64,000 nt of DNA from Candidatus Saccharimonadota bacterium (lineage in GTDB: Bacteria > Patescibacteriota > Saccharimonadia > Saccharimonadales > Saccharimonadaceae): the NCBI GenBank assembly GCA_017510925.1, contig JAFWLT010000006.1, positions 98,599 to 162,598 of the forward strand, in the 5' to 3' direction. Below are positions 2,882 through 19,758 of this stretch, one piece after another; position 1 is the first letter of the stretch, and every line of letters starts with the position of its first letter. The translations under genes were made by a program, and so were the position numbers. The notes below the pieces were generated by a model. It worked only from the letters and a program-made list of their open reading frames with translations, was not told the origin of the DNA and searched no databases.

Positions 2882-5031
2882 TGCAGAATTTTTCCAAGAA
2901 TCACCCCATTTTGCACATCGTTTTAAAAAATACTTTTACGCTCTTTAATCTCGTTAACCTGATTTTGGCTCTGATGGTGGCCTTTGTGGGGAGTTTCAAA
3001 AATATGCTCTTTATTTTTATTGCCATCGCTAACACCTTGATTAGTATTATCAACGAAGTTAGAGCCTACAAAATTGTCAAAAAAATGCGCCTTATCACCG
3101 AGCAAAAACCTACGGTGATTAGAGAGGGTAAAACCATCCAAATTTTAGCCGAAGAAATAGAAAAAGGCGATATTGTGGTTTTAAGTCTAGGCGACCAAAT
3201 TTTGTATGATAGCGTACTAGAAGAGGGTGTCCTAGAAGTTAACGAATCCTTTATCACGGGCGAACAGGATAGCATCGAAAAGCACCCAGGCGACGAGCTG
3301 ATCTCTGGTAGCTTTGTAGTGGCTGGCACGGCTAAAGCAAAGGTGGAAAAAGTAGGGGAAGAAAATACTATCACCAAGCTAGAAAAAGAAGCCCATCATT
3401 TAAAAACTGCCGACTCCAAGCTATTCACCCTTATGAACAAGATCGTCAAATACATCTCTTACACTCTTATTCCAGTGGGGGCACTGCTCCTTTGGTCTAG
3501 ATTTAGGACTGAGTCCGAAACTGCCACGGCCGTAACTAGCACCGTAGCAGCTCTCATTAATATGATCCCAGAGGGCCTAATTCTTTTAACTAGCTCGGTC
3601 CTTGCTCTTGCTACCATCAGGCTATCCAAACGCAAAGTTCTTGTCCAAGACCTCTATTCTATCGAGACTCTTGCTCGCGTAGATACCATTTGTTTAGATA
3701 AAACTGGCACCCTCACCTCTGGTAATATGGTGGTTCACGATTTCATCTTGCCAAATGGCGATACGTTTAAAAAAGCTACCACGGAAGGACCCCCAGCCGA
3801 AAAATCGCTTCTAAGGCCTCTAAACGCCATTCTGAGCACTCAAATGGCCGAAAACGCAACCACTAGCGCTTTGAAGAAAGCCATGCCAAAAAACGCCAAT
3901 TTTGGCGAAATAAAGGGCATTGTGGATGTTGTCCCCTTTAGCTCAGATCGTAAATGTTCTGGTTTTAAGACTAAAGACGCCGAATATCTCATGGGCGCCA
4001 TTGAATTCCTCACGGATGACAAGGAAGTAATCAAACAGGTAAAGTCCTATGCCGGTGATTATCGCGTGATAGCCGTAGTAAAAAATAAAGAATATCTAGG
4101 TTGTATTAGATTAAAGGACGAAATCAGAAAGAACGCGCCACAAATTATCCAGTATTTTTATGATAACGACATCACACCAAAAGTTATTTCTGGCGACGAT
4201 CTAGAAACGGTCAAAACTATCGCTGAGGCAGTTGGGATTAAGGATCTAGATGGTGTAGATCTTTCTACCGTCAAAGACCTAAATTACGACAAACTCGTCA
4301 AAAATTATTCTATTTTTACCCGGGTTAAACCAGAGCAAAAGAAGTCTTTGATAAAGGCCCTCAAAAAGATGGGCAGCACCGTCGCTATGACTGGTGATGG
4401 TGTCAATGACATTCTTGCTATGAAAGAAGCTGACTGTTCTATTGCCATCGGCGAGGGCTCCGATGCTGCCCGTCGCTCGGCAAAATTAGTACTTCTAGAT
4501 TCTGATTTTGACCGTGTTCCGTCTATCATCGATGAAGGGCGTCAGTCTATCAACAACCTAGAACGTTCCACTAGCCTTTTCTTGGCTAAAACCGTCTACG
4601 CCACCACGCTGGCCGTGATTTTTGTCCTAGCGCCTCTAAGCTATCCGTTTAGCCCGATAGAAATGAGCTTACTTAGCTTCGCCTGCATTGGTTTTCCGGG
4701 CCTAGTTTTAGCACTAGAAAAAAATACAGCCAGGATCAAAGACAAATTCACCTACAACATCAAACATTATTCTGTCCCTACGGGCATTGCAGTGGCCACA
4801 GCTATGGTTATTCTTTCTATCATTGCTACCACTAATAATTTCAGTAGAGAAAAACTCACCACTCTCTCTGCCATCATCGTCTTTTCTATTGATATGATTT
4901 TGATCTATAAGGTCTCACGCCCACTCAATCTCTTTCGTGCAGCTCTTATTGCTGTCATTATCGCCATTTTCCTTTGTGCGCTCTTTATCCCATTTATTCA
5001 AAATTTCTTTGAATTTACTTTGGCTTGGTAG
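2881..5031 (+). CDS. P-type cation-transporting ATPase (HAD-IC family)
   Basis: TGE (ITGEQD), phosphorylation motif CLDKTGTLT, hinge TGDGVNDILAMKEAD, multiple TM helices. Confidence 0.9.
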   Translation: MQNFSKNHPILHIVLKNTFTLFNLVNLILALMVAFVGSFKNMLFIFIAIANTLISIINEVRAYKIVKKMRLITEQKPTVIREGKTIQILAEEIEKGDIVVLSLGDQILYDSVLEEGVLEVNESFITGEQDSIEKHPGDELISGSFVVAGTAKAKVEKVGEENTITKLEKEAHHLKTADSKLFTLMNKIVKYISYTLIPVGALLLWSRFRTESETATAVTSTVAALINMIPEGLILLTSSVLALATIRLSKRKVLVQDLYSIETLARVDTICLDKTGTLTSGNMVVHDFILPNGDTFKKATTEGPPAEKSLLRPLNAILSTQMAENATTSALKKAMPKNANFGEIKGIVDVVPFSSDRKCSGFKTKDAEYLMGAIEFLTDDKEVIKQVKSYAGDYRVIAVVKNKEYLGCIRLKDEIRKNAPQIIQYFYDNDITPKVISGDDLETVKTIAEAVGIKDLDGVDLSTVKDLNYDKLVKNYSIFTRVKPEQKKSLIKALKKMGSTVAMTGDGVNDILAMKEADCSIAIGEGSDAARRSAKLVLLDSDFDRVPSIIDEGRQSINNLERSTSLFLAKTVYATTLAVIFVLAPLSYPFSPIEMSLLSFACIGFPGLVLALEKNTARIKDKFTYNIKHYSVPTGIAVATAMVILSIIATTNNFSREKLTTLSAIIVFSIDMILIYKVSRPLNLFRAALIAVIIAIFLCALFIPFIQNFFEFTLAW

Positions 5032-15544: not shown

Positions 15545-16504
15545 ATGCCAAAAAATATTGCAGACAAAATCTATACCATCCGTGGACAAAAAGTGATGTT
15601 AGATTATGATTTAGCAGAACTTTATGGTTACACTACCAGTGCGTTTAACCAACAAGTGAAGAATAATAAAGAAAAATTTGAAGGCGAAGATTTTATGTTT
15701 CGTCTTGCAGAAAAAGATATGTCTATAGTTTTGCTATCAAAAAATTTGACAGCAAAAATAGATGGTCGTGGTGGAGATAGAAGGTTGCCATACGCTTTTA
15801 CTGAATCGGGAATTTATATGTTGATGACCGTATTAAAAGGAGATTTAGCGACTAAACAAAGCAGAGCGCTTATTCGTACGTTTCGAGCCATGAAAGACTA
15901 CATTATCAGCCACCAATCCGTTGTTTCCAAAGTCATAGACAACACCAAAGACATTACCGAGATCAAAACCGAAATCAAACAAATCGCCAGTGAAATGACC
16001 GGTGTAGTCAAAAAATCCGAAATCTCTCCCATTCTTTTAGATTTCGCCAAAGTTGCTGAGACCAAAGAGTTCTTGATTCTAAATGGCGAGCCAGCAAGGG
16101 CCAAAGAAACTTACCAGGATATTTTTAGAAAAGCCAAAAAACGTATATATATTATAGATAATTACATCAGCATCAAGACTCTTCGCCTTCTCCAAGCTGC
16201 CAAGTCAAATATAGAAGTGATATTTTTTAGTGACAATATTGGCAATTGCTTATATGCTAGCGATGTAAAAGACTTCAAAAAGGATCGCAAAGATTTAGAA
16301 ATTAAATTTATCAGAACTAACAATGCTGTGCATGATAGGTTTATCATCGTCGATGGTGAAAAATTTTACCATTGTGGCAGCTCGTCAAAAGATGCAGGGA
16401 AGAGAATCGCCGTCATTCACGAAATCACCGACAAACAAATTGTCAAAACCATCAAAGATATCATCGTCAAAATGGCCAAGAACAAAGAGCTGATTTTAAA
16501 GTAG
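15545..16504 (+). CDS. ORF6N-domain protein fused to a PLD/HKD-like C-terminal domain (HxR variant)
   Basis: The N-terminus (IRGQKVMLDYDLAELYGYTTSAFNQQVKNNKEKF...FMFRL...PYAFTESGIYML) is an ORF6N/KilA-N-related fold. The C-terminal HDRFIIVDGEKFYHCGSSSKDAGKR resembles HxK(x)4D...GSxN with K replaced by R. SD GGGAG upstream. Confidence 0.6.
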   Translation: MPKNIADKIYTIRGQKVMLDYDLAELYGYTTSAFNQQVKNNKEKFEGEDFMFRLAEKDMSIVLLSKNLTAKIDGRGGDRRLPYAFTESGIYMLMTVLKGDLATKQSRALIRTFRAMKDYIISHQSVVSKVIDNTKDITEIKTEIKQIASEMTGVVKKSEISPILLDFAKVAETKEFLILNGEPARAKETYQDIFRKAKKRIYIIDNYISIKTLRLLQAAKSNIEVIFFSDNIGNCLYASDVKDFKKDRKDLEIKFIRTNNAVHDRFIIVDGEKFYHCGSSSKDAGKRIAVIHEITDKQIVKTIKDIIVKMAKNKELILK

Positions 16505-16513
16505 CCCTATCTG

Positions 16514-16522
16514 TGGTATAAT
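16514..16522 (+). promoter_or_regulatory. extended -10 promoter (TGgTATAAT) with no ORF behind it
   Basis: TGG (16514-16516) plus TATAAT (16517-16522). The TTG at 16528 terminates after 4 codons. Confidence 0.55.
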
Positions 16523-16528
16523 TATAGT

Positions 16529-16675
16529 TGTCCAAACTATAATTTAACGCAACAGAAAACAGCAGAATATATCTGTTGTCTATAGTGCTTAGAATCGGGC
16601 GCTGTAGGCAATAGGCACTATGTTCTGTTGTATAAGTAGTTTGGACGCTATCTACAGCGTCCGATTTTGGTTTTG
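16529..16675 (+). ncRNA. candidate structured RNA (cis-regulatory leader or sRNA) ending in an intrinsic terminator
   Basis: Nested perfect helices 16530-16539/16637-16646, 16550-16557/16623-16630, 16559-16566/16572-16579 and 16581-16588/16615-16622. Terminator stem 16643-16649/16656-16662 is followed by GATTTTGGTTTT. Confidence 0.4.
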
Positions 16676-16698
16676 TAGCATGCGTCCATTTTGCACCT

Positions 16699-16722
16699 TT
16701 CTGTTGCGAGAAAGCAACAGAA
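16699..16722 (+). promoter_or_regulatory. perfect 9-bp hairpin/inverted repeat abutting the methyltransferase start codon
   Basis: TTCTGTTGC (16699-16707), loop GAGAAA, GCAACAGAA (16714-22). The ATG lies at 16724. Confidence 0.5.
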
Positions 16723-16723
16723 C

Positions 16724-17734
16724 ATGGGAAGCAATGCGAATTTCCACAAGGCTAGCATAGTAAAAAACGATGAATTCTATACTAGGCTTGTCGATATTGA
16801 AGATGAATTAAAATATTATAAAGAGCATTTCAAAAATAAAGTAATATTTTGTAATTGTGATGACCCATATGAAAGCAACTTTTTTAAATACTTTGCAATG
16901 AATTTTAATCGCTTAGAATTAAAAAAAATAATTTGTACTAGTTATACTGGTTCACCAATTGTTGGCGAAGAATTTAGCGACTTACCACTCTTTAAAAACC
17001 TAAATAAGAGAAAAGCCTATAAGGTAGAAATAACCGAAGTCTATGATGAAAATGGCGATGGAGCCGTGGATTTATATGATATTAAACTCCTAATTAAAAA
17101 TATGAAAAATAAGATGGAACCACTACAAGGAGATGGCGACTTTCGTAGCAAAGAGTGCGTCGAGTTGTTAAAGGAAGCGGATATTGTAGTTACTAATCCA
17201 CCATTTTCGATCGCGAGAGAATATTTTATACCGTTGTTGATAAAATATAACAAAAAGTTTCTTATAATCGGAGATTTAAATTGGGTAACATATAAAAACT
17301 TTTTCCCGTTAATAAAAGACAACAAAATATGGTTTGGTCACAATTGTGTGAAAGAATTTATTCAACCGAATAAAAGTAATAAAAAATTTGGCAATAAACT
17401 TTGGTATACGAATCTTGATATTCCCAAAAGGCACGAAAAAATAACGCCATATAAAGAGTACACCCCAGAAGAATATCCAAAATATGACAATTATGACGCT
17501 ATAAACGTAGACAAGATTGCTGAGATTCCAGATAGATATTATAAACCAATGGGGGTACCTATTACTTTTCTTAACAAATACAACCCAGATCAGTTTGATA
17601 TACTTGGGATCGATAGATATATTAATGATAACCCGAATTACGGCCGCAGGTTTAAAATCGATGGTAAGGAAATATATGCAAGAATAATAATTAAACGAAA
17701 GGATCAAAATGAAAATCGAACTCCACAAAATTAA
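16724..17734 (+). CDS. N6-adenine DNA methyltransferase, EcoRI-methylase-like family
   Basis: N-terminal DEFYT motif and catalytic VVTNPPFS (NPPF). Visibly more AT-rich than its neighbours. The start is taken at ATG 16724; the track TTG at 16691 lies just upstream of the 16699-16722 hairpin. Confidence 0.75.
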   Translation: MGSNANFHKASIVKNDEFYTRLVDIEDELKYYKEHFKNKVIFCNCDDPYESNFFKYFAMNFNRLELKKIICTSYTGSPIVGEEFSDLPLFKNLNKRKAYKVEITEVYDENGDGAVDLYDIKLLIKNMKNKMEPLQGDGDFRSKECVELLKEADIVVTNPPFSIAREYFIPLLIKYNKKFLIIGDLNWVTYKNFFPLIKDNKIWFGHNCVKEFIQPNKSNKKFGNKLWYTNLDIPKRHEKITPYKEYTPEEYPKYDNYDAINVDKIAEIPDRYYKPMGVPITFLNKYNPDQFDILGIDRYINDNPNYGRRFKIDGKEIYARIIIKRKDQNENRTPQN

Positions 17735-18815
17735 AGTAAAAGATGTCTTCGCTGGGTATAAGGATTCCGACGAGGAAGGGGTTATTGGTTATGGGGGGAA
17801 ATTAGACATTCGCCCGAAATATCAGCGTAACTTTGTTTATAAAGAAAAACAGCGTGACGCCGTCATAGATACAATTCGTAAAGGTTTTCCACTTAATGTA
17901 ATGTACTGGGCGAAGAAGGAAGAAAAAGAAGGCGATTTAGAGTATGAGGTTCTTGATGGCCAACAGCGTACAATATCTTTTTGTGAATATCTTCAAGGGA
18001 ACTTTTCAATCAAAGATAATGGCAATATATACTATTTTGATAGCCTAACTGCTGACGAACGTGAAAAAATTGAGAACTATGATTTGTATATCTATATTTG
18101 TGAGGGCACAGAGAGTGAGCGCCTTGAATGGTTTAAGACTATTAACATCGCTGGCGAAAAATTGACCGACCAAGAGCTTAGAAATGCAGTTTATTCTGGC
18201 CCATGGCTCACCGATGCCAAGGGATATTTCAGCAAATCCAACTGCCCAGCCTATGGTCTTGCAGATAAATATATGGGTGGTTCACCAATTAGGCAAGAGT
18301 ATCTAGAATCAGCTCTAAAATGGATTTCAAGCGACAATATAGAAGAATATATGTCCAAGCACCAGCATGACGCCAATGCCTCCGAACTTTGGCAATATTT
18401 CCAAACCGTAATTAGCTGGGTAAAGACTATTTTTCCAAAAGAGCGCAAAGAGATGAAAGGCCTAGAATGGGGCGAATTCTATAACAAATACCACAACAAT
18501 TCTTACAATGCTACGGACCTAGAAAATCAAATCAAAGCACTCATGCAAGACGAAGATGTCACTAGTAAAAAGGGAATCTACGAATACCTACTAAACGGTG
18601 ATGAAAGAAATCTTAGCATTCGCGCTTTTACCGACAACATGAAACGCGAGGCCTATGAACGTCAAAATGGCATCTGCGCAAAATGTAAAGAACATTTTGA
18701 AATCACCGAAATGGAAGCCGACCACATCACTCCATGGAGTCAAGGTGGCAAAACCATCGCCGAAAACTGCCAGATGCTCTGCCGTGATTGTAACCGTCGT
18801 AAATCCGATAGCTAA
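17709..18815 (+). CDS. DUF262 (ParB/GmrSD N-terminal-like) - HNH endonuclease fusion
   Basis: LDGQQRT motif of DUF262. C-terminal HNH: CAKCKEHF...ADHITPWSQGG...NCQMLCRDCNRRKS. SD AAGGA upstream. Overlaps the MTase gene by 26 nt. Confidence 0.8.
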   Translation: MKIELHKIKVKDVFAGYKDSDEEGVIGYGGKLDIRPKYQRNFVYKEKQRDAVIDTIRKGFPLNVMYWAKKEEKEGDLEYEVLDGQQRTISFCEYLQGNFSIKDNGNIYYFDSLTADEREKIENYDLYIYICEGTESERLEWFKTINIAGEKLTDQELRNAVYSGPWLTDAKGYFSKSNCPAYGLADKYMGGSPIRQEYLESALKWISSDNIEEYMSKHQHDANASELWQYFQTVISWVKTIFPKERKEMKGLEWGEFYNKYHNNSYNATDLENQIKALMQDEDVTSKKGIYEYLLNGDERNLSIRAFTDNMKREAYERQNGICAKCKEHFEITEMEADHITPWSQGGKTIAENCQMLCRDCNRRKSDS

Positions 18816-18859: not shown

Positions 18860-19758
18860 ATGTCATCAAAGGTTTATTTTACTAAAGATATTTCGCCAGA
18901 AAGTTTAGAAAAAGTTTACAAGGCCCTGAATCTAGACATTACAAACGGTGGCAAAAACAAAGTTGGAGTTAAAGTTTCTACCGGCGAAGACGGAGCCAAG
19001 GGCTACCTCAAGCCTGAGCTTATCGGTCCATTTGTAAAATCTCTAAACGGCACGATCATCGAATGTAACACTGCCTACCCAGGCGCCAGAAACACCGCTG
19101 AGGATCATATCGAAGTCGCCAAAAACACGGCTTCACTAGCTATGCTGATGTTGACATTATGGACGCCGAAGGCGAATTTGAAATCCCTGCACCAAAAAAC
19201 AGCAAGCACCTAAAATATGATCTTATCGGTGAGAATTTCAAAAACTATGATGCCATTGTTAATCTAGCCCATGGCAAAGGCCATGCCATGGGCGGCTTTG
19301 GTGCCAATCTCAAAAATCAATCCATCGGTATTGCCTCAAGAAACGGCAAAGCCTATATTCACTCTGCCGGCAAAACCAAAAGTCCTAAGCTCTGTTGGAT
19401 TTCTAAGCACAAACAAATCGATTTTATTGAATCCATGGCCGAGGCTGCCACTGCCGTTTCTGATTACTTAAAAGAAGAAAACAAACCTATTATATATATT
19501 ACAGTAGCCAATGCACTTTCTCTAGATTGTGATTGCGATTCCAAACAAGGCGACCCGGTGATGAGCGACATCGGTATTTTCGCTTCACTAGATCCAGTCG
19601 CTAACGACCAGGCATTTATCGATGCTATCTGGGCTTCAAAAGACAAAGGAGCAGAAGACTTGAAAGAACGTATTGACACTCGCGAAGGTCGTGCCATCTT
19701 ACCTTATGCCGAAGCTCTTGGCCTTGGCTCTACCAAATACGATTTGATCGAAATCTAA
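18860..19758 (+). pseudogene. DUF362/COG2768-type protein interrupted by a 1-nt frameshift
   Basis: ORFs 18860-19213 and 19159-19758 join into one protein if one extra A is added to the A5 run at 19121-19125 (...EVAKKHGFTSYADVDIMDAEGEFEIP...). Confidence 0.7.

Follow-up and report, generated by a model that had tools for sequence, protein, structure and literature searches.

The type II restriction-modification (R-M) operon found in contig JAFWLT010000006.1 of a Saccharibacteria genome is preceded by a structured leader. The leader lies in a 219-nt intergenic gap between an ORF6N-domain gene (15545-16504) and the ATG codon of the methyltransferase gene at 16724; all positions refer to the window, that is, the whole analysed stretch of 64,000 nucleotides. 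We consider it probable, at roughly 0.6, that the leader is a transcription attenuator in which competing RNA helices gate the operon.

Sequence comparison indicates that the leader is a real, conserved cis-acting RNA. Its helices exist, are mutually exclusive, have been kept by compensatory changes and always precede the operon. With a promoter on one side and the first gene on the other, the leader forms the 5' untranslated region of the operon, and this position is the same in 15 loci. In all types of the leader, the coding region is preceded by a G+C-rich hairpin with a U-run after it. Alternative helices compete for both arms of this terminator, and these relations are conserved. The compensatory changes that support the helices were observed in a manual alignment covering few lineages.

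Promoter, competing helices and terminator

The leader begins with an extended -10 promoter (Table 1). The form TRTGnTATAAT is retained in 13 of the 14 copies that cover the promoter region, the exception being L102 with GTTGTATAAT; no conservation was observed further upstream of the extended -10 in the leader copies compared. The preliminary description of this stretch had claimed that this is the only promoter before the methyltransferase ATG and that no real open reading frame (ORF) lies behind it. Both claims hold: the promoter scan found no second promoter-like site before 16724, and the TTG ORF following the promoter has just four to five codons (TTG TCC AAA CTA TAA in the window, TTG TCT AAA CCA ATT TAA in types B and C; the types are described below). 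An ATG ORF at 16620 is missing in L122. In window-type copies only, the promoter region has two further features: TATAATTATA at 16517-16526 is a perfect palindrome and hence places a minus-strand TATAAT at the same site, and a second plus-strand TATAAT is found at 16538-43, within the P1 5' strand and J1/2.

The predicted start, G16530, is 8 nt after the -10 box in the window, the distance being 6-7 nt in the other Saccharibacteria-type copies. It coincides with the first base of P1, as does the predicted start in all Saccharibacteria-type copies. The palindrome H0 extends from the 3' half of the -10 box through the discriminator and over part of the P1 5' strand to J1/2, and cannot form in RNA beginning at 16530. 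Yet the potential to form this hairpin is present in 15 of 15 copies (-5 to -13 kcal/mol) despite differing arm sequences. In RNA initiated upstream, H0 would sequester the P1 5' strand. When 25-50 nt of upstream RNA were added in partition-function folding, the probability of P1 fell to about 0 and that of the terminator rose to about 1 in 10 of 12 copies (the L082 sequence was truncated in this test). The folding model suggests, though it does not prove, that transcripts arriving from upstream genes are terminated and that self-initiated RNA alone can pass.

The helices P1, P2, P3 and P4, all proposed in the preliminary description, were recovered at the same positions. It had combined them into a three-way junction closed by P1, and here the picture changes: the helices exist, but the junction is merely one of two competing folds, and the minimum free energy (MFE) fold of the window RNA consists of a 32-bp rod and the terminator. 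Four elements are additional to the earlier list: the 15-bp helix beta:delta, the palindrome H0, the strand delta' (16674-88 in its pairing with epsilon), and the pairing 16620-30/16715-25.

The RNA 16528-16675 folds with -56.9 kcal/mol, compared to -31.6 +/- 3.6 in dinucleotide shuffles (z -7.0). The longer RNA 16505-16730 folds with -96.1 kcal/mol (z -9.0), and its minus strand with -64 kcal/mol (z -4.9). Exact TTCTGTTG/CAACAGAA sites occur four times in the 64-kb window, all inside 173 nt of the leader. The nested three-way junction with alpha:gamma forced has -44.0 kcal/mol and the beta:delta duplex -24.2 kcal/mol; the rod with the terminator T1 (-56.9) and the junction with beta:delta are roughly isoenergetic before any pseudoknot penalty.

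The two folds differ in the partner of strand alpha. In all copies alpha is able to pair with beta or with gamma, and under alpha:gamma the strand beta sits in a loop. These relations indicate that the junction and the rod are alternative states of one switch. In RNA ending before delta, the favoured fold is P1 with alpha:beta in 11 of 12 sequences. Therefore both partners of delta are hidden before delta is transcribed.

The T1 stem, described earlier as 16643-49/16656-62, can be lengthened to 16641-49/16656-64; it is then formed by eight Watson-Crick pairs and one G-U pair, and is followed by TTTTGGTTTTG. T1 is present in all copies, with type-specific stems; termination itself is predicted. 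The short sequence GGAC (16643-46) belongs both to the T1 5' arm and to the P1 3' strand. The mutual exclusion of P1 and the terminator, proposed earlier for the window, is not confined to it: every Saccharibacteria-type copy has this overlap of the 5' arm with the P1 3' strand, and so do the Bacteroidales relatives. The terminator 3' strand, delta, has a second partner in addition to epsilon. Among the long-range helices of L001 and L002, beta:delta has the top score; its end coincides exactly with the U-run in types B and C as well as in other phyla, whereas T1 ends 2-3 nt earlier. Since delta has this second, stronger long-range partner, the logic exceeds a choice between P1 and the terminator, and it may be the junction that terminates rather than permits read-through.

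The arm epsilon has a second partner too. Its pairing with delta' gives another epsilon-dependent terminator-like hairpin. In L122 the T1 loop and delta' have changed jointly (GCTTGC/GCAAGC), so that 11 pairs follow one another without a break. At the position of delta', types B and C contain a second hairpin that is complete, GACACC..GGTGTC, followed by a hairpin bearing AGGAGG. The perfect hairpin abutting the methyltransferase ATG, described previously, was confirmed with nine of nine pairs; types B and C likewise have start-proximal hairpins, as do the Bacteroidales leaders (GATTGATAG..CTATCAATC). The alternative pairing of the start-codon region with the P2 3' strand region is kept in L122 by a paired change ATCTCTGTTG/CAACAGAGAT.

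Conservation and covariation of the leader

A scan for the methyltransferase in one genome per species produced 508 relatives, and 80 loci were kept. Further copies of the leader came from the closest methyltransferase homologues in a large protein collection, which contains more than 7,900 homologues at E < 1e-60, and from one metagenome pattern scan, where 34 stretches matched, three of them true copies and the rest AT-rich chance matches. In total, 15 leader copies of three diverged types were found, all of them before operons encoding the methyltransferase and a DUF262-HNH protein. The leader sequence family is missing at the remaining 78 methyltransferase loci of the genome scan. No leader was found apart from such an operon in 129 loci, no second copy in the 64-kb window, and no matches in a phage-collection search with the leader or in a pattern scan of viral contigs.

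Two of the 80 loci kept, L001 and L002 from Saccharibacteria metagenome-assembled genomes, show synteny with the window. Over 219 nt, the leader identity to the window is 99.5% in L001 and 98.6% in L002, and the flanking genes are about 77% identical. The identity falls within a few bases of the borders of the near-invariant block, 16489 and 16740. The identity of leaders to the window is 93.0-99.5% in six type A loci and 77.5% in the diverged locus L122; over its first 600 nt, the methyltransferase gene has an identity of 70-75% in the six loci and of 69-75% overall. The upstream neighbours vary and include an ORF6N gene, FtsZ-NrdR, an ADP-ribosylglycohydrolase and a divergent dCMP deaminase.

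The interiors of types A, B and C cannot be aligned by sequence, yet all follow one common plan. Its 5' part is formed by TRTGnTATAAT, P1 starting 6-8 nt after the -10 box, an A/U-rich J1/2, P2, and the interior with alpha, beta and gamma. Then follow the P2 3' strand, J2/1, the P1 3' strand overlapping epsilon, delta, the U-run, a second hairpin that re-uses terminator arm sequence, and the start-codon hairpin.

As MAFFT misaligned the interior and the P1 3' strand across the types, 12 distinct sequences were segmented by hand and padded with N; after that, MAFFT left every paired column in register. For the 44 pairs of P1, P2, alpha:gamma and beta:delta, 97.6% of cells form standard pairs, and 28 pairs have changed on both sides (4 of 9 in P1, 5 of 11 in P2, 9 of 10 in alpha:gamma, 10 of 14 in beta:delta). 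None of 500 shuffles reached the observed pairing or covariation score, and sliding a partner by 1-3 columns reduced pairing to 29-46%. RNAalifold applied to the plain MAFFT alignment of types B and C recovered P2 and alpha:gamma, with compensatory changes in 10 of 22 pairs. In L122, P3 is still paired (CAGCAGA/TCTGTTG replaced by CAGAG/CTCTG), as is P4 (TATAGTGC/GCACTATG replaced by TAGCATCC/GGGTGCTA). Compensatory changes in related loci, which the preliminary description had named as a check of its helices, are therefore found in P1, P2, P3 and P4. For type A alone, RNAalifold returned the rod. This result was not used to choose the fold because L122 breaks many rod pairs and P3 is out of register.

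Leaders of a similar kind were observed before operons of the same family in other phyla. A strict terminator within 300 nt upstream is present in 20 of 74 other methyltransferase loci, and these terminator-bearing regions have the same plan as the Saccharibacteria leader with unrelated sequence. At 17 or more loci of other phyla, the long-range helix that scores best in the leader runs right up to a T-run.

In Clostridia, P1 has 15-19 bp, differs in sequence at each locus and begins a few bases past TGnTATACT. An inner hairpin TTTGC-TAAAAAC-GCAAA is conserved, and its 3' part is complementary to the stretch preceding T5. Further 3' there is a canonical terminator and then a start-proximal Shine-Dalgarno hairpin re-using a terminator arm. 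In Bacteroidales, 25 loci have a common leader of 240-290 nt. RNAalifold on a plain alignment predicts P1, P2 and the start-proximal hairpin, and 15 of the 19 predicted pairs are compensatory. These leaders contain a conserved GCTATTATTTCGCG and a box GAAATAATA complementary to TATTATTTC; the two boxes show matched one-base length changes, TATTC/GAATA. Neither the Bacteroidales nor the Clostridia leaders correspond to an Rfam family.

The homologous R-M operon of L055 has no structured leader. Instead, positions 594-957 contain a divergent gene for a 75-aa HTH_3 (Xre-type) protein and repeated palindromes ATACGAGTATTTTTCGT / ACGAGAAATACTCGTAT, an arrangement resembling those of controller (C) proteins. 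The presence of a helix-turn-helix (HTH) controller in place of the leader fits the leader being an alternative regulatory device.

Table 1. Features of the window and loci with related leaders
Feature	Position	Strand	Pairing, evidence or members
Near-invariant block	16489-16740	+	last 5 codons of the upstream gene to methyltransferase codon 6; alignment with L001 and L002
Extended -10 promoter TGTGGTATAAT	16512-16522	+	promoter scan; weak -35-like TTTAAA at 16495-16500
Palindrome H0	16520-16544		arms 16520-29/16535-44; 10/10 Watson-Crick pairs
Predicted transcription start G	16530	+	first base of P1; predicted from the position relative to the -10 box
Sensor domain closed by P1	16530-16646	+	pairs verified; covariation
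P1	16530-39/16637-46	+	10 Watson-Crick pairs
J1/2	16540-48	+	A/U-rich
P2	16549-57/16623-31	+	8 bp (16550-57/16623-30), 9 with G-U 16549/16631
P3 hairpin	16559-66/16572-79	+	8 bp, one G-U
Strand alpha	16581-88	+	16580-90 when paired to beta
Strand beta	16593-16607	+	
Strand gamma	16615-22	+	
P4 (alpha:gamma)	16581-88/16615-22	+	8 bp, one G-U
J2/1	16632-36	+	
alpha:beta (tip of the rod)	16580-90/16597-607	+	
Rod hairpin	16559-16631	+	32 bp including 9 G-U; MFE fold
Predicted intrinsic terminator T1	16641-16675	+	stem 16641-49/16656-64, U-run 16665-75; terminator scan
Strand epsilon (T1 5' arm)	16641-49	+	overlaps the P1 3' strand at 16641-46
Strand delta (T1 loop, T1 3' arm, first U)	16652-16666	+	pairs with epsilon or beta
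beta:delta long-range helix	16593-607/16652-66	+	15 bp: 14 Watson-Crick and 1 G-U; ends at the U-run
Strand delta' (TGTAGCATGCGTCCA, then TTTT)	16674-16692	+	second partner of epsilon (16642-56/16674-88), 12/15 positions paired
Start-codon hairpin	16699-707/16714-22	+	perfect 9 bp, purine-rich loop GAGAAA; ends one base before ATG
Alternative pairing, P2 3' strand region with start-codon region	16620-30/16715-25	+	11/11 Watson-Crick; includes the first two ATG bases
Regulated operon	16724-18815	+	methyltransferase and endonuclease genes, 26 nt overlap
EcoRI-family N6-adenine methyltransferase	16724-17734	+	Pfam PF13651, E 8e-114; PADLOC MTase_II
DUF262/GmrSD_N-HNH endonuclease	17709-18815	+	Pfam PF03235 and PF01844; PADLOC REase_II full-length, E 9e-151
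Type A (window-like) leaders			L001, L002, L085, L086, L121, L123; diverged L122
Type B leaders			L081, L082, L097, L102
Type C leaders			L083/L084, L100, L129
Clostridia leaders			L010, L041, L054, L064; about 250 nt upstream of the methyltransferase
Bacteroidales leaders			L006, L013, L022, L025, L034, L037, L042, L044, L047, L048, L056, L057, L059, L060, L062, L063, L066-L070, L072, L073, L075, L078; about 240-290 nt upstream of the methyltransferase

Proposed mechanism and rival explanations

In the attenuator that we propose, transcription from the extended -10 promoter would start at G16530, the first base of P1. Delta would have two 5' partners: the local epsilon, giving T1, and the distant beta, giving the 15-bp helix at the U-run. 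Two locks would hide them. The 5' end of the transcript, via P1, would hide part of epsilon, and alpha (16580-90) would hide beta in the rod fold. If gamma (16615-22) took alpha, the P1-P2-P3-P4 junction would form, with beta exposed in the P4 loop. With delta unpaired while the polymerase crosses the U-run, the operon would be read through; otherwise, a leader RNA of about 140 nt would be released. RNA derived from upstream would carry the left arm of H0 and form H0 instead of P1, leaving epsilon free to form T1, and none but transcripts initiated at the promoter of the cassette itself could pass. After read-through, the delta' hairpin and the start-codon-occluding hairpin could provide further damping.

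Yarnell and Roberts (1999) reportedly found that a transcript is released when an oligonucleotide pairs with the strand preceding the U-run. As a duplex next to the U-run can release the transcript, beta:delta is treated here as terminating. Thus we regard it as termination-competent, and the read-through state would then be P1 with alpha:beta. The opposite sign, with beta:delta as an antiterminator, cannot be told from this one by sequence. The signal tipping alpha between beta and gamma is more likely to be a protein, or the kinetics of folding and elongation, than a metabolite. The candidates that remain are a protein effector, either one of the two enzymes or a factor of the host, the kinetics of folding and elongation, and a ligand pocket that so small a set of sequences does not reveal.

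Several points weigh against the attenuator as described. The start site, termination and read-through are all predictions, as are the sign of each state and the signal acting on alpha. The covariation alignment was made by hand and fitted to the helices, and the register of alpha:gamma across the types is arbitrary. The significance in the shuffle control is overstated because the sequences fall into three or four lineages only. The beta:delta signal depends in part on T1, as terminator arms always covary and beta resembles epsilon; however, columns 1-4 of beta:delta pair beyond the T1 stem and covary too. The junction state with beta:delta is a pseudoknot, and its summed energy excludes the corresponding penalty. 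The near-invariance within the window type exceeds that of most structured RNAs, and recombination may contribute to it. L097 lacks the predicted shift from P1 to the terminator on 5' extension, and H0 is retained at L081, where the upstream gene is divergent. Finally, insulation cannot be the whole story, since an ordinary upstream terminator would insulate more simply.

Parts of this design are familiar. The pbuE (ydhL) adenine riboswitch of Bacillus subtilis has an ON-type transcriptional expression platform. As in riboswitches of this type, the P1 3' strand of the leader is part of the terminator 5' arm, and a stable P1 prevents the terminator. The leader differs in matching no Rfam aptamer, the purine one included, and in having no conserved junction core, in the placement of P1 at the predicted first base, in a second, hairpin-gated partner of the terminator 3' strand, and in its context, an R-M operon rather than metabolism or transport. 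In the pyrG leader of B. subtilis, antitermination depends on reiterative addition of G at the 5' end when CTP is low. There too read-through is decided by base pairing between the very start of the transcript and the 5' arm of a terminator further downstream; here, in contrast, this pairing is a templated, covarying helix of 9-11 bp without a starting G run, and is accompanied by many further helices. The rep genes of pT181, pIP501 and pAMbeta1 are subject to countertranscript-driven transcription attenuation. They share with the leader mutually exclusive folds including a terminator, a dosage-limited gene and a location on mobile DNA, but no conserved antisense promoter or RNA is seen here, and the decision is apparently made within the sense RNA.

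A recent review of R-M regulation lists promoter methylation, methyltransferase repressors, antisense RNA, C proteins and translational effects, and its text does not contain 'riboswitch', 'attenuat' or 'leader' (PMC12707154). With these modes of control the leader shares a presumed aim, that is, expression of the endonuclease and the methyltransferase within bounds, also after transfer to a new host; the means is different, a cis-acting RNA fold with an intrinsic terminator. A literature search for a riboswitch or attenuator of R-M systems found nothing relevant. A terminator with competing helices and a P1 overlapping the terminator are known already, whereas the family, its operon context, the doubly partnered terminator 3' strand and the P1 keyed to the 5' end are found neither in Rfam 15 nor in the 2025 review (PMC12707154).

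Among the alternatives, a metabolite riboswitch survives best. In this case an aptamer closed by P1, for example for S-adenosylmethionine (SAM), S-adenosylhomocysteine (SAH) or a nucleotide signal, would set termination. The conserved overlap between the P1 3' strand and the terminator 5' arm has the logic of an ON-type platform, the two folds are nearly isoenergetic, and conservation within the window type is extreme. Moreover, the methyltransferase uses SAM, and a tie of the R-M operon to cofactor supply would make biological sense. However, there is not even a weak match in Rfam, SAM and SAH classes included. In Rfam 15, the best score in the window region was 24 bits with a threshold of 56, on the wrong strand; 17 leaders of related loci had no match, and permissive scans of two leaders from other phyla gave chance-level similarity only. 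This agrees with the earlier remark that the fold was not recognised as any riboswitch or small RNA (sRNA) class. The interior architecture differs between the types: P3 is found in type A, and in type B there is one more hairpin and the P2 5' strand is duplicated. A search for a conserved unpaired core among types A, B and C, a weak test with some 12 distinct sequences, returned nothing beyond AAUUUAA in J1/2, which is present in a variant form in L122. J1/2 is complementary to the arm of H0 nearer the promoter, and this accounts for its conservation. The leaders of other phyla share the architecture and have no recognisable sequence core. With junctions not conserved between the types save J1/2, there is no indication of the small-molecule ligand suggested in the preliminary description, and we consider a riboswitch unlikely.

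The leader might be a free-standing sRNA gene producing an RNA of about 140 nt that acts in trans, read-through into the methyltransferase gene being incidental. It is a complete unit with a consensus promoter, a structured RNA and a terminator (in tandem in types B and C), and in the window type favours the terminated form at equilibrium. This possibility, also raised earlier, has lost ground: conservation does not stop at the terminator and runs through the start-codon hairpin to codon 6, no other promoter-like site serves the methyltransferase gene, and neither the survey of loci nor the window contains an element detached from the operon. Complementarity of the leader to the translation start of the endonuclease gene, which would allow it to act as an antisense RNA there, is no better than with shuffled targets in six loci. 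A trans-acting sRNA therefore seems improbable.

The symmetric elements might act as DNA. H0, TTCTGTTGC-N6-GCAACAGAA at the ATG codon and the repeated 8-mers would then bind a repressor, perhaps the DUF262-HNH protein or the methyltransferase, similarly to C-boxes or methyltransferase repressors. H0, which could in principle be an operator, is impossible in RNA starting at 16530 and is kept with changed arms in all 15 copies; the palindrome at 16699-16722 is a perfect 9-6-9 one, one 8-mer occurs four times in 173 nt, and the related operon of L055 has an HTH regulator and palindromic boxes. DUF262 proteins such as DndB are reported to be DNA-binding regulators. On the other hand, the 8-mer is not kept between the types, and the arms in types B and C change sequence while retaining complementarity, as RNA helices do. 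All nine mismatches of the rod are G-U on the plus strand, and the minus strand folds much worse. Near-identical window-type leaders precede methyltransferases with differing C-terminal halves, and thus the leader does not track enzyme specificity. Finally, no HTH domain was found in the methyltransferase or the endonuclease, where Pfam gives the methylase, GmrSD_N and HNH domains alone. Operators as the main explanation seem quite improbable.

Still less probable is that the leader is a by-product of recombination, a homology arm or boundary for swapping R-M cassettes or specificity domains. Such an origin would agree with leaders 95-99.5% identical adjoining methyltransferase DNA that is 70-75% identical, with mosaic methyltransferase C-terminal halves behind the window-type leaders, and with the differing genomic contexts of the module. 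It leaves unexplained the compensatory changes that separate L122 and types A, B and C, the recurrence of the architecture in other phyla despite unrelated sequence, and the sharp drop of identity near functional elements on both sides. Recombination can, however, coexist with attenuation.

Countertranscript attenuation, in which a minus-strand antisense RNA would bind the leader and force the terminator, has precedents in pT181, pIP501 and the EcoRI and Eco29kI antisense RNAs, resembles the leader in its alternative folds and terminator, and is of a kind accepted for R-M systems (PMC12707154), but it is hardly tenable here, since no minus-strand -10-like element is conserved over the three types, the promoter scan gives no minus-strand site in 16505-16723, and the minus-strand structure is much weaker.

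Several other classes were considered and rejected. For a leader peptide there is no conserved ORF; the predicted 5' end has just the TTG ORF, without a Shine-Dalgarno box or codons common to the types. Control by a C protein is not supported as the module has no HTH gene. A type III toxin-antitoxin system (ToxIN-like) would require a tandem array, whereas a repeat search shows short two-copy matches, and the downstream genes are a type II methyltransferase and an endonuclease. For a HEARO/IscB omega-RNA, similarity is confined to HNH (27.6 bits with a cut-off of 175), the endonuclease fits REase_II over its full length, and there is no guide-like variable single-stranded end. A tRNA, a ribozyme or 6S RNA is supported neither by Rfam nor by the architecture.

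R-M systems balance a lethal nuclease against a protective methylase, most critically after entering a new host, and attenuation by RNA structure is absent from the modes of control in the 2025 review (PMC12707154). The occurrence of terminator-bearing leaders in Saccharibacteria, Bacteroidales and Clostridia suggests a common, overlooked layer of control in gut and rumen bacteria. A more far-reaching reading, which we put forward tentatively and hold to be doubtful, is that these leaders form an undescribed cross-phylum class: two-lock attenuators keyed to the 5' end of the transcript, where P1 would form, and one or two terminators be escaped, in self-initiated RNA alone, with the alpha toggle taking input perhaps from a new ligand or from either of the two enzymes. 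If so, a mobile, potentially lethal gene pair would set its own expression at any insertion site, and this would be a new principle of R-M regulation. Being compact (about 140 nt), strongly conserved and apparently bistable, the leader could serve as a practical model of co-transcriptional switching and is a candidate orphan riboswitch. It is also relevant to the genetic tractability of bacteria such as Saccharibacteria, where R-M systems limit transformation.

The operon, its neighbours and other loci

The domain assignments in Table 1 identify the leader-borne operon as a type II R-M pair. The upstream gene (15545-16504) combines an ORF6N domain with a C-terminal region that is a full-length match to PDC-S05, a candidate defence family of PADLOC (E 6e-93), and therefore the R-M operon lies within a small defence island. 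Downstream, a DUF362 gene (18860-19758) is apparently split, probably by a frameshift, into the ORFs 18860-19213 and 19159-19758, which overlap. L002 contains the segment 18797-19752, and the syntenic locus L001 lacks it.

In type B and C loci (L081 ~826-860, L082, L083 ~2950-3000, L097, L100, L102, L129), the codon aligned with the window ATG is ATA. The same codon is found at L125 1-70 and in the leaderless second methyltransferase gene of L126-L128. It lies 4-5 nt past a strong AGGAGG-like site, and the conserved N-terminus xSNANLRKA... is in frame from it. All these methyltransferases probably start at AUA. In L097 this start is likely because there is an in-frame TAG five codons upstream, with no ATG, GTG or TTG between.

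The loci L126 and L127 (638-2813) and L128 contain two tandem EcoRI-family methyltransferase genes, one DUF262-HNH gene, and then a gene with GmrSD_N and GmrSD_C. The second methyltransferase gene has a promoter, a Shine-Dalgarno site and the ATA codon, without a structured leader. In L122, a compact unit at 2084-2200, upstream of the leader, has GGTATAAT, a hairpin AGAAGATTAGC.. and a terminator GAAATCGTTACTTACGGCGATTTC with a T-run, and may be a small RNA gene.

The methyltransferases encoded behind type A leaders (P0001, P0005-P0008, P0011, P0025) have a common N-terminal catalytic half. From about residue 210 their C-terminal halves differ in sequence and length, and for this reason the overall identity is merely 57-62%. 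This divergence looks like a swapped target-recognition region.

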